From the NCBI RefSeq assembly GCF_053078305.1, contig NZ_CP166879.1: DNA of 64,000 bases. One strand, written 5' to 3'. Below the pieces are notes generated by a model, which was given only the letters and a program-made list of their open reading frames with translations, was not told where the DNA came from and did not search any database. The translations under genes and the position numbers were made by a program. Position 1 is the stretch's first letter; each line of letters opens with the position of its first letter. Positions 21,490 through 27,001 of this stretch are shown here, in pieces.

Positions 21490-22487
21490 TGGAGCGTAAA
21501 GGGATTATCGCCGCAGGCAATATGTTGGTTGACCACGTCCATCAGATTATCCAGTGGCCAGAGCGCGGCTGGCTGGCGGAGATCACCCACAGCGAACGCT
21601 CCACCGGCGGTGCGCCGCTTAACGTCCTGCTGACGCTGGCGAAAATGCGCACCGGGCTGCCGTTACAGGCGGTTGGGCTAATCGGTCAGGACAGCGACGG
21701 CGATTACATCATGGCGATGCTTGAGCAATATCACGTCAATCGTCAGCATGTGCAGCGCACTACCTTTGCCCCGACGTCGATGTCGCAGGTGATGACAGAC
21801 CCAAGCGGGCAGCGGACGTTTTTCCATTCGCCGGGTGCAAACAGACTTTTGGATCTTCCGGCGTTCGATCAGCTCGATAACACCATGAAGATTTTCCATC
21901 TCGGCTATTTACTGTTGCTCGACAGCCTGGATATGCCGGACGATGTTTACGGCACCCGTAGCGCACGCCTGCTGGCGCAAATGCGTGATACTGGCTTTGA
22001 AACCTCACTCGACCTGGTCTCCCGTAAGGGCGATCCGCGTTATCAGCCGCTGGTGCTGCCCGCGTTGCGCCATCTGGATTATCTGGTAATTAACGAACTG
22101 GAGGCCGGGGAGTTTAGCGGGCTGGAAATTCGGTTACCCAACGGCGAACCGCATATCGCGCATATTGCTGCCGCCGCGCGTGAACTGTTAGATGCGGGCG
22201 TGCGCCAGCGGGTGGTGATCCACTGCCCGGAAGGGGCGTGGGGAGAGACCCCAGAACAGGGCGGCGTGTGGATCCCTTCGCAAAAGTTAGAACAACGGGA
22301 AATTATCGGCAGCGTCGGCGCGGGCGATGCATTTTGTGCCGGATTTTTATATGGCTGCCATGAACGCTGGACGCTTACCGAGAGCATCAAACTGGCACAC
22401 GCCTGCGCGCGGGCAAGCCTGTTATGCGCCAATGCCATCGACGGGGCGAAAACGCTGGAAGAGCTGCAAACAGAAATGTCGGATTAA
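21486..22487 (+). CDS. PfkB-family carbohydrate kinase
   Basis: 333 aa; GG dipeptide (STGGAP) and C-terminal PfkB signature GSVGAGDAFCAGF; start overlaps aldolase stop (ATGA). Confidence 0.8.
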   Translation: MMERKGIIAAGNMLVDHVHQIIQWPERGWLAEITHSERSTGGAPLNVLLTLAKMRTGLPLQAVGLIGQDSDGDYIMAMLEQYHVNRQHVQRTTFAPTSMSQVMTDPSGQRTFFHSPGANRLLDLPAFDQLDNTMKIFHLGYLLLLDSLDMPDDVYGTRSARLLAQMRDTGFETSLDLVSRKGDPRYQPLVLPALRHLDYLVINELEAGEFSGLEIRLPNGEPHIAHIAAAARELLDAGVRQRVVIHCPEGAWGETPEQGGVWIPSQKLEQREIIGSVGAGDAFCAGFLYGCHERWTLTESIKLAHACARASLLCANAIDGAKTLEELQTEMSD

Positions 22488-23191
22488 TGCACGTCGGCAG
22501 CGAAGACATACCCCAGACCGCGCAGAGTTTTAATCAACATCGGCTGATGCGGGTTGAGTTCGATTTTGCGTCGTAAGCGCATGATTAATACGTCGATGGT
22601 GCGATCAAACACCTCCACGCTGTCGCTGTGGGTGAACGCCAGCAACTGCTCGCGGCTCAATACCCGACGCGCGTTTTGCGCCAGAGCCAGTAACAAGCCA
22701 TATTCGCCCTGAGTTAACTCGACATGTTGCTGAAGCGGATTGTGCAACTGGCAGCGCATGGTATCGAGATACCAGCCATTGAATGACAGCCCGGCGCTTT
22801 TCTCGTCATTAACCGCCAGCGCACCAACCCGTCGCAACACCGCTTTCAGTCGTGCGACCACCACCCGCGGGGTGAACGGTTTGCAGATGTAATCATCCGC
22901 GCCCATTTCCAGCCCGACCACCACATCAGACTCACTGCCCATGCCGGTCAACATCACCACCGGCAATGTCGGACGCAGTTTCTGGATTTGCTGCAATACC
23001 CTCAGGCCGTTGGTATCGGGTAGCATCATATCCAGCACCACCAGCGCAATGTCAGGATCGCCCTCAATACGCAATATGGCCTCCTGTCCGGTATGGCAGA
23101 CTGAAACCGTAAAGACATGTTCACTTAACACGTCCTGCAACAGTGCGCAGATAGCCGTGTCATCATCCACCACCAGCACGACGGGTTTCAT
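22484..23191 (-). CDS. OmpR/PhoB-family response regulator (REC plus winged-helix DNA-binding domain)
   Basis: ATG at 23189-23191 with GGAG 9 nt upstream (alternative ATGs at 23204-23209); VLVVDDD, LDMMLPD, C-terminal LRGLGYVF winged helix. Confidence 0.85.
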   Translation of the reverse strand: MKPVVLVVDDDTAICALLQDVLSEHVFTVSVCHTGQEAILRIEGDPDIALVVLDMMLPDTNGLRVLQQIQKLRPTLPVVMLTGMGSESDVVVGLEMGADDYICKPFTPRVVVARLKAVLRRVGALAVNDEKSAGLSFNGWYLDTMRCQLHNPLQQHVELTQGEYGLLLALAQNARRVLSREQLLAFTHSDSVEVFDRTIDVLIMRLRRKIELNPHQPMLIKTLRGLGYVFAADVH

Positions 23192-23481
23192 GGTTACACT
23201 CCGCATCATTCATCTGATTAATCATTGTGCGTACTTCTTGTCGAAGTGAAAGCTGAAAGTAATATAAATAATAAAAATATAAGTCAGGTCACATTATTGA
23301 TGATAGTAATAAATATGCCGTACTTTTCCCTCTTCAGCACAAATGCCTAATAAAATGGATCGTTCCGCTCACACTTCCACTTATTAAAGTCGCAATTTCC
23401 CAATTATGATAACGCCAGCTTTAAATGACGTATTTTGCATGGATTACATATTTACGACATAAATGATAAATGGAGATTTAT

Positions 23482-25467
23482 ATGAATAACTCTCGGTTAT
23501 TCCGTTTGAGCAGGATTGTTATTGCGTTAACCGCCGTCAGCGGCATGATGGTAAATACCGCTAACGCGAAAGAGGAAGCGAAAGCCGCCACTCAATATAC
23601 CCAACAGGTTAATCAGAATTACGCCAAATCATTACCGTTTAGCGATCGTCAGGATTTTGACGATGCCCAGCGTGGATTTATCGCCCCGCTGCTGGATGAA
23701 GGTATTCTGCGTGATGCGAACGGTAAAGTTTACTACCGCGCAGACGATTACAAATTTGATATTAATGCCGCTGCGCCGGAAACCGTAAACCCCAGCCTGT
23801 GGCGTCAGTCGCAGATCAACGGCATATCTGGCCTGTTCAAAGTCACCGATAAAATGTATCAGGTGCGCGGCCAGGATATCTCTAACATTACGTTCGTTGA
23901 GGGCGAGAAAGGCATTATTGTCATCGACCCGCTGGTGACGCCGCCTGCCGCAAAAGCCGCACTTGACCTTTACTTCCAGCATCGTCCGCAAAAACCGATT
24001 GTTGCCGTTATCTACACTCACAGCCACACCGACCACTATGGTGGCGTGAAAGGCATTATCTCTGAAGCCGATGTTAAATCCGGCAAAGTTCAGGTGATTG
24101 CCCCTGCTGGCTTTATGGACGAAGCCATCAGCGAAAACGTGCTGGCGGGTAACATCATGAGCCGCCGTGCGCTCTACTCTTACGGTCTGTTACTGCCGCA
24201 CAACGCGCAAGGCAACGTGGGTAATGGCCTTGGCGTGACGCTGGCAACGGGCGACCCGAGCATTATTGCACCGACTAAAACTATCGTCAGAACTGGCGAG
24301 AAGATGATTATCGACGGCCTGGAGTTTGACTTCCTGATGACCCCAGGCAGCGAAGCCCCAGCCGAAATGCACTTCTATATTCCGGCCCTGAAAGCCCTGT
24401 GTACCGCCGAGAACGCCACGCATACCCTGCACAACTTCTACACTCTGCGCGGCGCGAAAACCCGCGATACCAGCAAGTGGACAGAGTACCTGAACGAAAC
24501 GCTGGATATGTGGGGTAACGACGCGGAAGTACTGTTTATGCCGCACACCTGGCCGGTCTGGGGCAATAAGCATATCAATGATTATATTGGTAAATATCGC
24601 GATACCATCAAGTATATTCACGATCAAACCCTGCATCTGGCGAACCAGGGCTACACCATGAATGAAATCGGCGACATGATTAAGCTGCCGCCTGCGCTTG
24701 CCAATAACTGGGCCAGCCGCGGTTATTACGGTTCTGTCAGCCACAACGCCCGCGCGGTGTATAACTTCTATCTTGGCTATTACGACGGTAACCCGGCTAA
24801 CCTGCATCCGTATGGTCAGGTAGAGATGGGCAAACGTTACGTGAAAGCGCTGGGCGGTTCTGCCCGTGTCATCAACCTGGCGCAAGAAGCGAACAAGCAA
24901 GGTGATTACCGCTGGTCGGCAGAACTGCTGAAACAGGTGATTGCCGCCAACCCGGGTGACCAGGTCGCGAAGAATCTGCAAGCGAATAACTTTGAACAGC
25001 TGGGCTATCAGGCCGAGTCCGCCACATGGCGCGGTTTCTACCTGACCGGCGCGAAAGAGCTGCGCGAAGGGGTGCATAAGTTCAGCCACGGCACCACCGG
25101 TTCCCCGGACACCATTCGCGGAATGTCGGTCGAAATGCTGTTCGACTTTATGTCCGTTCGCCTCGATAGCGAAAAAGCCGCGGGTAAAAATATCAGCCTG
25201 AACTTCAATATGAGCAACGGCGATAACCTCAACCTGACGCTGAACGATAGCGTGCTTAACTACCGTAAAACGCTGCAATCCCAAGCTGACGCCTCTTTCT
25301 ACATCAGTCGTGAAGATCTGCACGCCGTGCTGACCGGACAAGCCAAAATGGCGGATCTGGTAAAAGCGAAGAAAGCCAAAATTATTGGCAATGGTGCGAA
25401 ACTGGAAGAAATTATTGCCTGTCTGGATAATTTCGATTTGTGGGTAAATATCGTAACCCCAAATTAA
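23482..25467 (+). CDS. yjcS: Alkyl/aryl sulfatase YjcS (metallo-beta-lactamase fold, secreted)
   Basis: ATG at 23482 with GGAG upstream; signal peptide; HSHTDHYGG metal motif; about 661 aa. Confidence 0.85.
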
Positions 25468-25476
25468 TGCCACTCA

Positions 25477-25506
25477 CTTTTGGGGGCGCTTAAGCCCCCA
25501 AAAGCA
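25477..25506. terminator. Candidate intrinsic terminator after yjcS
   Basis: Hairpin tttgggggcgcttaagcccccaaa followed by an A/T-rich tract. Confidence 0.45.
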
Positions 25507-25675
25507 TTTACTTTAAAAATATATGCAGCCAATTAATAAATAAAACATATAAGTTATGAATGCGGTGGCTGAATAAAGCTATTTTTATTCATCAAGAAAA
25601 TAGCCATACTGACGCCTTCAATGGATAGTGATATTCACTACAGATATTGTTCGCAGCAGACAGGATGTATTTAAT

Positions 25676-25951
25676 ATGCCAACAGTTCTCTCTCGCATGG
25701 CGATGCAACTCAAAAAAACAGCCTGGATAATTCCCGTCTTCATGGTTTCGGGATGTTCATTATCTCCGGCAATCCCGGTGATCGGCGCTTATTATCCCAG
25801 CTGGTTTTTCTGCGCCATTGCCAGCCTTATTTTGACGCTCATCACGAGGCGAATTATTCAGCGGACAAATATCAATCTGGCATTTGTCGGAATTATTTAT
25901 ACCGCCCTTTTTGCTCTCTACGCCATGCTGTTCTGGCTGGCATTTTTCTAA
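25676..25951 (+). CDS. ytcA: Small lipoprotein YtcA
   Basis: ATG at 25676 (MPTVLSRMAM); lipobox VSGC; about 91 aa; immediately upstream of mdtN. Confidence 0.7.
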   Translation: MPTVLSRMAMQLKKTAWIIPVFMVSGCSLSPAIPVIGAYYPSWFFCAIASLILTLITRRIIQRTNINLAFVGIIYTALFALYAMLFWLAFF

Positions 25952-25969
25952 TCTATTTGAGACGCGCTC

Positions 25970-27001
25970 ATGGAAAGTACGCCGAAAAAAGCTCCTCGCA
26001 GTAAATTCCCTGCTCTGTTAGTGGTTGCGTTGGCGCTGGTTGCCCTTGTTTTCGTTATCTGGCGCGTAGACAGTGCGCCATCAACTAATGACGCTTACGC
26101 GTCAGCAGATACCATTGATGTGGTGCCGGAAGTCAGCGGCCGCATTGTAGAACTGGCGGTCACCGACAACCAGGCGGTGAAACAGGGAGATTTGCTGTTC
26201 CGCATCGACCCGCGCCCGTACGAAGCCAATCTGGCGAAAGCTGAAGCCTCCCTCGCGGCACTGGATAAGCAAATTATGCTCACCCAGCGTAGCGTTGACG
26301 CGCAACAGTTTGGTGCCGACTCGGTTAATGCCACGGTAGAAAAAGCCCGTGCTGCCGCGAAACAGGCCAGCGATACATTACGTCGCACCGAGCCGCTGCT
26401 GAAAGAAGGTTTTGTTTCTGCAGAAGATGTTGACCGCGCAAGAACGGCGCAGCGCGCGGCAGAAGCCGATCTTAATGCCGTATTGTTACAGGCACAGTCA
26501 GCCGCCAGCGCCGTCAGCGGCGTCGATGCACTGGTGGCGCAACGTGCGGCGGTCGAAGCGGATATTGCCCTGACCAAACTGCATCTGGAAATGGCGACCG
26601 TTCGCGCGCCGTTTGATGGCCGGGTCATTTCCCTCAAAACCTCCGTCGGGCAATTTGCTTCTGCCATGCGCCCTATTTTTACCCTAATCGACACTCGTCA
26701 CTGGTACGTTATCGCTAACTTCCGCGAAACCGATCTGAAAAATATTCGCTCAGGTACACCCGCAACGATTCGCCTGATGAGTGACAGCGGCAAAACCTTC
26801 GAGGGTAAAGTGGATTCGATTGGCTACGGCGTGCTACCGGATGACGGCGGCCTGGTGCTGGGCGGCCTGCCGAAAGTGTCACGGTCTATTAACTGGGTCC
26901 GCGTTGCACAGCGTTTTCCGGTCAAAATCATGGTCGATAAACCTGACCCGGAAATGTTCCGCATCGGCGCTTCGGCAGTCGCTAATCTTGAGCCGCAATA
27001 A
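25970..27001 (+). CDS. mdtN: Efflux membrane fusion protein MdtN (HlyD family)
   Basis: 343 aa; N-terminal TM anchor, coiled-coil region; operon with mdtO and mdtP. Confidence 0.9.
   Translation: MESTPKKAPRSKFPALLVVALALVALVFVIWRVDSAPSTNDAYASADTIDVVPEVSGRIVELAVTDNQAVKQGDLLFRIDPRPYEANLAKAEASLAALDKQIMLTQRSVDAQQFGADSVNATVEKARAAAKQASDTLRRTEPLLKEGFVSAEDVDRARTAQRAAEADLNAVLLQAQSAASAVSGVDALVAQRAAVEADIALTKLHLEMATVRAPFDGRVISLKTSVGQFASAMRPIFTLIDTRHWYVIANFRETDLKNIRSGTPATIRLMSDSGKTFEGKVDSIGYGVLPDDGGLVLGGLPKVSRSINWVRVAQRFPVKIMVDKPDPEMFRIGASAVANLEPQ

Follow-up and report, generated by a model that had tools for sequence, protein, structure and literature searches.

The lmvR–yjcS spacer beside the OI167 mannose–lyxose cluster of Escherichia coli: probably a composite control region that holds the cassette breakpoint within it

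Introduction

Where does a gene cassette end and the common chromosome begin, when the two meet in a short spacer between divergent genes? The question is raised by the 290 bp that separate a response-regulator gene from yjcS in a stretch of 64,000 nucleotides of contig NZ_CP166879.1 (RefSeq assembly GCF_053078305.1), referred to below as the window. A first-pass annotation of this DNA had taken the entire spacer for the right-hand junction of a strain-specific island with the conserved backbone, and had proposed that the island replaced the K-12 genes through homologous exchange in the flanking genes.

The neighbouring cluster is already known: it is the published OI167 cluster lmvK-lmuXYZIAK-lmvR, and the spacer is an ordinary promoter region at a known island edge. 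The identification follows from the gene order, which fits annotated carriers and EDL933, and from the presence of an exact LmvR operator. In an annotated carrier, the phn operon is followed by yjdP, a hybrid histidine kinase, a three-gene sugar ABC transporter, a D-lyxose/D-mannose isomerase, a ketose-bisphosphate aldolase, a PfkB kinase, the response regulator and yjcS-ytcA-mdtNOP-fdhF. At the equivalent site, from yjdP to yjcS, K-12 has rpiB-alsRBACEK.

Yang et al. (mBio 2023; PMC10128022) call OI167 of O157:H7 EDL933 a horizontally acquired island. They report that LmvK/LmvR activate lmu and the LEE upon mannose, and their account of lmvR itself describes it as induced by mannose or lyxose and as autoregulated (PMC10128022). 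Here we divide the spacer into zones according to their homologs in other genomes, place the published LmvR data on these zones and weigh several histories of the junction.

Results

Genes and composition of the spacer

The lmvR–yjcS spacer occupies positions 23192-23481, exactly 290 bp between two divergent start codons, just as the first-pass annotation had it. On its left, lmvR (22484..23191, minus strand, stop codon included) encodes an OmpR/PhoB-type response regulator of 235 aa with the Pfam domains Response_reg and Trans_reg_C; the window's LmvR is identical to that of EDL933, of the WP_000805929 type (PMC10128022). Its ORF begins with the ATG at 23191 (MKPVVLVVDDD...), a start used by annotators and by the primers of Yang et al. 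and preferred here to that of a longer ORF from 23209, which is listed mechanically. On the right, yjcS (23482..25467, plus strand, stop codon included), coding for an alkyl sulfatase of 661 aa, begins with the ATG at 23482, preceded by a GGAG ribosome-binding site. Two small ORFs inside the spacer, of 20 and 41 codons, were dismissed as being without support.

The spacer is AT-rich, as had been noted, with 33.1% G+C against 53.6% for the window. Such a composition is typical of promoter-bearing intergenic DNA and no outlier: 3.1% of all 290-bp segments equal or exceed it in AT-richness, and five other places in the window are AT-richer.

The absence of any repeat or mobile-element scar, also remarked on at first pass, was borne out. 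The spacer itself has no inverted repeat, and its two direct repeats are short, weak and not beyond chance. The longest word common to the left and right junction zones has 7 nt, under the shuffle mean of 7.5; no tRNA gene was found in 12000-26000, and none of the annotated genes of the cluster codes for an integrase or transposase. An Rfam scan of 22900-23800 gave no match at E<=1, and RNA folds of the two strands of the spacer are no stabler than those of shuffled sequences (z-scores +1.52 and -0.54). The left-hand counterpart of the spacer, between lmvK and yjdP (13982..14046), is homologous to the same spacer in Citrobacter.

Elsewhere in the window, tandem palindromic arrays of the REP/BIME type lie at 1675-2160 and 33645-34362, with periods of 100 and 114 bp and 4.8 and 6.3 copies, respectively. 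BIME copy number is strain-variable, and both arrays are away from the cluster junctions. In a single carrier, E. coli F9792 (locus L102, 9279-10487), an ISVsa5 element (IS10-like) interrupts the spacer, 6 bp ahead of the lmvR start. It is accompanied by a 9-bp duplication of CACTCCGCA, whose equivalent in the window is 23197-23205, and probably cuts lmvR off from its promoter.

Three states of the yjdP–yjcS locus

Locus states were counted with junction-specific queries in 5,426 complete E. coli genomes. The als type, as in K-12, is found in 3,358 of them, a remnant type in 1,568 and the lmv type of the window in 410 (7.6%); the remaining genomes include IS-mediated deletions. The remnant type keeps, between yjdP and yjcS, two pieces of rpiB, a hairpin homologous to the terminator of alsK and ~75 further bp; it has evidently arisen from an als-type locus by deletion. 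Carriers of the lmv type include many non-EHEC strains, obtained from humans, poultry, pigs, frogs and water.

Two further observations concern the surroundings of the site. In E. coli MSB1_9D (locus L086, 8000-9033), IS903B links yjdN to a position 33 bp ahead of yjcS. Lost in between are phn, yjdP and the entire variable cassette, and both yjcS and mdtN are pseudogenes. The yjcS gene has very deep alleles in E. coli, independently of the upstream cassette: 1,633 genomes match the yjcS part of query 22400-24400 at 80-90%, such alleles are seen at loci L085 (AF10) and L084 (OkiPb01689), and that of AF10 shows up to 75 differences per 250 bp.

Sequence zones within the spacer

We searched the spacer and its flanks against the same 5,426 genomes, resolved its zones by pairwise and multiple alignments and judged homology against shuffled sequences. 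The entire 290 bp occur in 410 genomes. In K-12-type genomes the match is limited to query 129-290 (window 23320-23481; 162/290 bp, 56%), at 98% identity; in remnant-type genomes query 70-290 is matched at ~91%. A 'distant' blastn search with the left half of the spacer returned only the 410 carriers, the low-complexity filter and the short length having hidden diverged homologs that pairwise alignment then revealed.

The yjcS-proximal part, zone C (23321..23481, plus strand), is the core yjcS upstream region and is 98-99% identical in all three locus types. It can also be aligned with E. fergusonii, which is of the als type, and with Salmonella, in which phnP, a 340-bp spacer and yjcS follow one another. 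Among the blocks conserved in this alignment are GCACAAATGCCTAA, CTCACACTT and TATGATAAC, as well as the region of ribosome binding. All Escherichia sequences compared are invariant over the final 82 bp (23400-23481), even that of a lineage with 6-10% divergence in its flanking genes. On this comparative footing, zone C appears to be the ancestral yjcS control region.

Next to it lies zone V (23259..23320), with only 22.6% G+C. The als, remnant and lmv types all have a homolog of it (0/1000 shuffles reach the score), 20-30% diverged from one type to another but near-identical within each type, as seen in K-12 vs AF10, TUM1881 vs OkiPb01689 and the window vs EDL933. In the alignments it is strictly linked to the type of cassette. 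Against the diverged lmv carrier Escherichia sp. MOD1-EC5495, zone V has 83.9% identity, zone C 94.4% and the spacer elsewhere 91-94%. Of all parts of the spacer, zone V evolves fastest, and this speaks for weak constraint there.

Further left, an 11-bp insertion relative to the remnant type (23247..23257) appears in pairwise and multiple alignments alike. It is followed by zone I (23214..23246), 33 bp that are ~75% similar to the remnant-type DNA just left of the AT-rich block. Its local alignment with the remnant type scores 13, a value reached by 4/1000 shuffles, and is collinear with those of the other zones; in K-12 it has no homolog (score 5, reached by 948/1000 shuffles). The remaining 22 bp, the lmvR leader (23192..23213, minus strand), contain the Shine-Dalgarno GGAG as read from the sequence (CTCC at 23199-23202 on the plus strand). 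In the K-12 and remnant alignments, this leader is the sole part of the spacer without a homolog in E. coli that do not carry the cluster.

Because K-12 matches only a part of the spacer, at 98%, and the rest is diverged or unique to the lmv type, the cassette breakpoint lies inside the spacer and not at its ends. The high-identity backbone resumes at 23321, and the cluster-unique DNA is restricted to 23192-23213. The right-hand junction proposed at first pass therefore survives in part: the limit of the segment absent from K-12 does fall within the spacer, but the spacer as a whole is no border. As for the same spacer beside alsK and yjcS in K-12, which would have moved the breakpoint elsewhere, K-12 holds those 162 bp next to yjcS and ~60 bp more as a diverged homolog; the rest is absent.

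Promoters, operators and binding data

Promoter activity for lmvR has been published for the P5428-lacZ fusion (PMC10128022). Mapped onto the window, the published primers (Table S2, PMC10128022) place this fusion at 23150-23654, with the whole spacer included, and the 'lmvR promoter' EMSA probe of Yang et al. 2023 at 23346-23562 (PMC10128022). The earlier supposition that the spacer contains both promoters is thus upheld for lmvR as far as the reported fusion goes, in that a fragment spanning the spacer is active; for yjcS, a promoter in the spacer is a plausible prediction.

The EMSA probe consists of core DNA entirely, namely of a part of zone C and the first 81 bp of yjcS. It sits 155-371 bp upstream of the lmvR start, and zone V is outside it. 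What has been reported as LmvR binding at "its own promoter" concerns a fragment of core DNA from upstream of yjcS.

A strict scan for sigma-70 promoters on both strands of the spacer found no match of at least 9/12, and a relaxed scan gave only weak candidates, among them TTATTA-18-TATGAT towards yjcS and CTGACT-15-TATATT towards lmvR. The former would provide yjcS with a candidate -10 element, TATGAT, at 23405..23410 (plus strand), 18 bp from a weak -35 element, TTATTA, at 23381-23386. The sequence corresponding to this -10 candidate is TATGAT in Salmonella and TATTAT in E. fergusonii. The promoter, 5' UTR and ribosome-binding site of yjcS most likely lie in zone C. For sigma-54, nothing in the spacer matches the consensus with three mismatches or fewer. 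A terminator-like hairpin within yjcS, picked up on the minus strand by a terminator scan, was put down to chance as its probable cause.

The published LmvR operator is ATATGA-N3-ATATGA, in the lmvK-lmuX spacer (PMC10128022). It is present there in the window as ATATGACAAATATGA (16338..16352, plus strand), upstream of lmuX, and this exact copy is the sole zero-mismatch match in the 64 kb. The lmvR–yjcS spacer has four LmvR-like pairs of half-sites, at 23260-74, 23262-76, 23268-82 and 23452-66; with 3 mismatches each, they are inseparable from the AT-rich background. Only the pair at 23452-66 falls within the published EMSA probe.

The ChIP-seq peak assigned to lmvR in the same study (EDL933 5208479-5209126; PMC10128022) corresponds to ~22504-23151 of the window. 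The Flag-tagged expression plasmid carried the lmvR coding sequence (5208439-5209146) as well, and the peak, with a pileup of 38,000-45,000 reads (~40x that of the lmuX peak), falls wholly within this sequence. It is likely a plasmid copy-number artefact rather than a sign of autoregulatory binding. Since the peak is confined to the plasmid-borne coding sequence, it is uninformative on the spacer, and we rejected it as evidence of binding there. Among the genes changed by lmvR overexpression in Table S3 of that paper (PMC10128022), yjcS is absent.

Synteny and age of the arrangement

Orthologs of LmvR with 73-80% amino acid identity occur in Citrobacter, Pseudescherichia, Cedecea, Phytobacter, Leclercia and others. 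In Citrobacter the gene order is nrf-gltP-yjcO-fdhF-lmvR-lmuKAIZYX-lmvK-yjdP-phnP, that is, the chromosomal site of E. coli minus yjcS-ytcA-mdtNOP; a Pseudescherichia-like genome has a similar arrangement, between yjdP and fdhF. Nucleotide identity between E. coli and Citrobacter is 74-89% for the lmv genes and 72-89% for flanking core genes. Motifs conserved upstream of lmvR orthologs in 17 other genomes were considered as LmvR sites and rejected: they represent the fdhF control region.

Closer to the window, lmvR adjoins yjcS in Escherichia sp. MOD1-EC5495 (LmvR 93% identical at the amino acid level) and in an assembly labelled E. coli (95%). In both, the spacer is exactly 290 bp long and aligns with that of the window without a gap. 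Between MOD1-EC5495 and the window, identity is 91.4% in the spacer, 89-94% in the lmv genes and 90-94% in mdtNOP, yjcS and yjdP. Because cluster, spacer and flanks are about equally diverged in this genome, the lmvR-yjcS junction appears to be an old feature of Escherichia and no recent scar. Two peculiarities of MOD1-EC5495 (locus L108, 10705-12708) may be recorded here: it is without the aldolase and lyxose isomerase genes (lmuA and lmuI), and it has an extra ORF of 237 codons between lmvK and yjdP.

The idea of a strain-specific island has to be given up, given that the cluster is the known OI167, is carried by 410 of the 5,426 genomes and is syntenic in Citrobacter and other genera, as well as being present in divergent Escherichia. 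The direction implied by a 'replacement relative to K-12' is likewise doubtful; by its looks, the lmv arrangement is no younger than that of als. Representative genomes of named Escherichia species other than E. coli yielded no close LmvR match, so strictly vertical descent would need several losses.

Exchange between E. coli backgrounds

The spacer of the window is 100% identical to that of a strain labelled O157:H7. An assignment of the window to O157:H7 was nevertheless rejected after comparison with EDL933, from which the window differs by ~0.4% over 15657-24156, by 3-5% on the phn side and by 2-5% beyond ~24300.

A similar picture emerges from four carriers, EDL933, XH990, F9792 and TR01. 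Across 15501-23500 the window mostly shows 0-8 differences per 500 bp from each of them, the exceptions being 12 in one F9792 bin and 33 in TR01 at 20001-20500, against 10-30 differences per 500 bp in the flanks. On the right, divergence sets in at ~23500 for F9792, ~24500 for EDL933 and ~26000 for XH990. The core of the cluster, together with the spacer, is mostly <=0.5% diverged among carriers; the flanks are 1.5-6% diverged. Since the core is near-identical and flank divergence starts at variable points in or after yjcS, the alignments support a spread of cluster and spacer between E. coli backgrounds that would have proceeded by homologous recombination in the flanks. The exchange in flanking genes suggested at first pass thus fits the spread of the locus among E. 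coli, but leaves unexplained how lmvR came to adjoin the yjcS upstream region in the first place.

Two segments of the window stand apart. At 14501-15500, in lmvK, it is ~5.5% diverged from all four carriers, compared with mostly <=0.5% in the rest of the cluster; this lmvK allele has the look of a mosaic, with a second deep lmv haplotype such as that of locus L110 as a conceivable source. At 26001-26500, in mdtN, the window is ~5% diverged from all four, with 20 differences per 250 bp against K-12.

Discussion

Altogether, we propose that the 290 bp form a composite, bidirectional lmvR/yjcS control region beside OI167, within an old haplotype whose cassettes have been exchanged through their flanks; we put the probability of this reading at about 0.85. 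The strain carries the lmv/lmu mannose-lyxose cluster in place of the allose operon. Of the spacer, the yjcS-proximal 161 bp would be core DNA common to K-12, the next ~107 bp (zones V and I) a cassette-linked, strongly diverged version of the ancestral far-upstream region of yjcS, and only the lmvR leader, the final 22 bp including the Shine-Dalgarno sequence, would be peculiar to the cluster. We would expect lmvR to be transcribed leftwards from a promoter somewhere in the 23150-23654 region of the lacZ fusion of Yang et al., and yjcS, presumably, rightwards. The series yjdP, lmv cluster, 290-bp spacer and yjcS would represent an old Escherichia haplotype, not the scar of a fresh insertion. 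Homologous recombination in the flanks would carry the three states, als, remnant and lmv, from lineage to lineage, with right-hand crossovers in zone C or in yjcS.

A bolder version of this proposal can be formulated, which we regard as rather doubtful. According to it, the lmvR promoter was built from resident yjcS regulatory DNA, joined 22 bp from the lmvR start and autoregulated there, the published LmvR-binding fragment being core DNA that K-12 has too; in other genera, lmvR shares its upstream DNA with fdhF. The yjdP–yjcS interval would then be an ancient three-state polymorphism (allose, mannose/lyxose, none) and not an acquired island, and LmvR could act on yjcS.

Other histories of the junction deserve consideration. 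The one closest to the first-pass annotation makes the whole spacer the island-derived border of a recent, strain-specific als replacement through flanking homologous exchange. The left 128 bp indeed have no megablast match in K-12-type genomes, a mobile-element scar is absent and flank exchange is seen among carriers; yet K-12 has 56% of the spacer at 98% identity, homologs of zone V exist in the K-12 and remnant types, the cluster is a published O-island present in 7.6% of complete E. coli genomes, and the same spacer recurs in a lineage 6-10% diverged, all of which makes such a recent event very unlikely. We attach next to no credence to a classical integrative island, arriving on a mobile element and leaving the spacer as a degraded attachment site. 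Its G+C content (56.3% for the cluster, above the 53.6% of the window) and the description by Yang et al. of the cluster as horizontally acquired would suit that scenario, but there is no tRNA, no annotated integrase or transposase and no direct or inverted repeat linking the junctions, and the site is syntenic in Citrobacter and others, with a divergence equal to that of flanking core genes.

A recent introgression is the most serious of the competing histories, and a possible one, although we hold it to be somewhat less probable than not. An lmv haplotype that took in the 5' end of yjdP as well as zones I and V would have entered E. coli proper from a cryptic Escherichia clade and then spread, instead of being kept there by vertical descent. 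Carriers of different backgrounds do have a nearly identical core, identity in a second haplotype (L110) is 92-95% for the lmv genes but 96-98.6% for the flanks, the lmvK segment of the window differs from every other carrier compared, and the named Escherichia representatives are without a close LmvR match. On the other side, the equal divergence of cluster, spacer and flanks in MOD1-EC5495 speaks for an ancestral arrangement, in that lineage at least. Introgression is compatible with the anatomy and function of the spacer as we propose them, and differs on history only. A separate alternative concerns zone V, which might be a functional, cassette-specific element co-evolving with the cassette, for example an H-NS nucleation site or an array of LmvR operators, in place of AT-rich DNA that diverges neutrally. 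Its very low G+C content (22.6%), its strict linkage to cassette type and the location of three of the four 3-mismatch LmvR-like matches, at 23260-23282, would fit such a role. We consider it unlikely nonetheless: zone V is the least conserved part of the spacer towards MOD1-EC5495 (83.9% vs 91-94%) and is outside the published EMSA probe, and motif matches of this kind are expected in AT-rich DNA.

In favouring a composite control region within an old haplotype, we are aware that the finding matters little beyond bookkeeping and that its refinements, although useful, are ordinary. The refined breakpoints and the core origin of the EMSA fragment could guide promoter mapping. More broadly, OI167 proves to be an old syntenic enterobacterial locus, found in ~8% of complete E. 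coli genomes, and not an EHEC-specific acquisition, which calls for caution in using lmvK and lmvR as EHEC markers.

The system most similar to that of the window is OI167 of EDL933, which has the same genes in the same order from yjdP to yjcS, a core ~99.6% identical and a spacer differing by at most a few bases. It is set apart by the flanks, 1.5-6% diverged, and by the one segment of the window's lmvK that is ~5.5% off all carriers compared. Yang et al. present the cluster as associated with EHEC; in our comparisons its carriers extend to varied non-EHEC strains, to further genera and to a cryptic lineage of Escherichia.

In the alsK-yjcS spacer of K-12, the yjcS-proximal 161-162 bp are 98% identical to the window, and the adjoining AT-rich block is homologous. 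The distal part is occupied by the alsK terminator hairpin with its TGGCAC, and the two genes are co-directional, unlike the divergent pair of the window. Binding of RpoN/NtrC to this K-12 spacer has been reported in vitro by gSELEX (PMC8743547); the reported site has no counterpart sequence in the spacer of the window. The hairpin, GTTGGCACAG...CTGTGCCAAC (K-12, locus L002, 11895-11932), contains TGGCACAGTAGCGCA, which is sigma-54-like with a spacing one base short and is absent from the window. Located in this als-specific hairpin, it may account for the gSELEX report (PMC8743547).

Citrobacter and its relatives offer a parallel of another kind: their fdhF-lmvR spacer, too, measures ~290 bp, separates divergent genes and precedes the orthologous regulator, and its chromosomal site is the same. 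It has no similarity to the spacer of the window (score 10, reached by 247/500 shuffles). Its fdhF-proximal 160 bp are homologous to the fdhF upstream region of E. coli (score 106, 0/500 shuffles), and its lmvR-proximal 128 bp have no homolog in the window's spacer. E. coli, unlike Citrobacter, has yjcS-ytcA-mdtNOP between lmvR and fdhF.

Finally, alternative cassettes at a fixed site can be swapped via conserved flanks, as with the O-antigen clusters between galF and gnd. Like these clusters, the yjdP–yjcS locus has mutually exclusive cassettes without mobility genes, homologous recombination in the flanks and variable endpoints; unlike them, it has three states, consists of sugar-utilisation genes and includes one state that is a deletion remnant.
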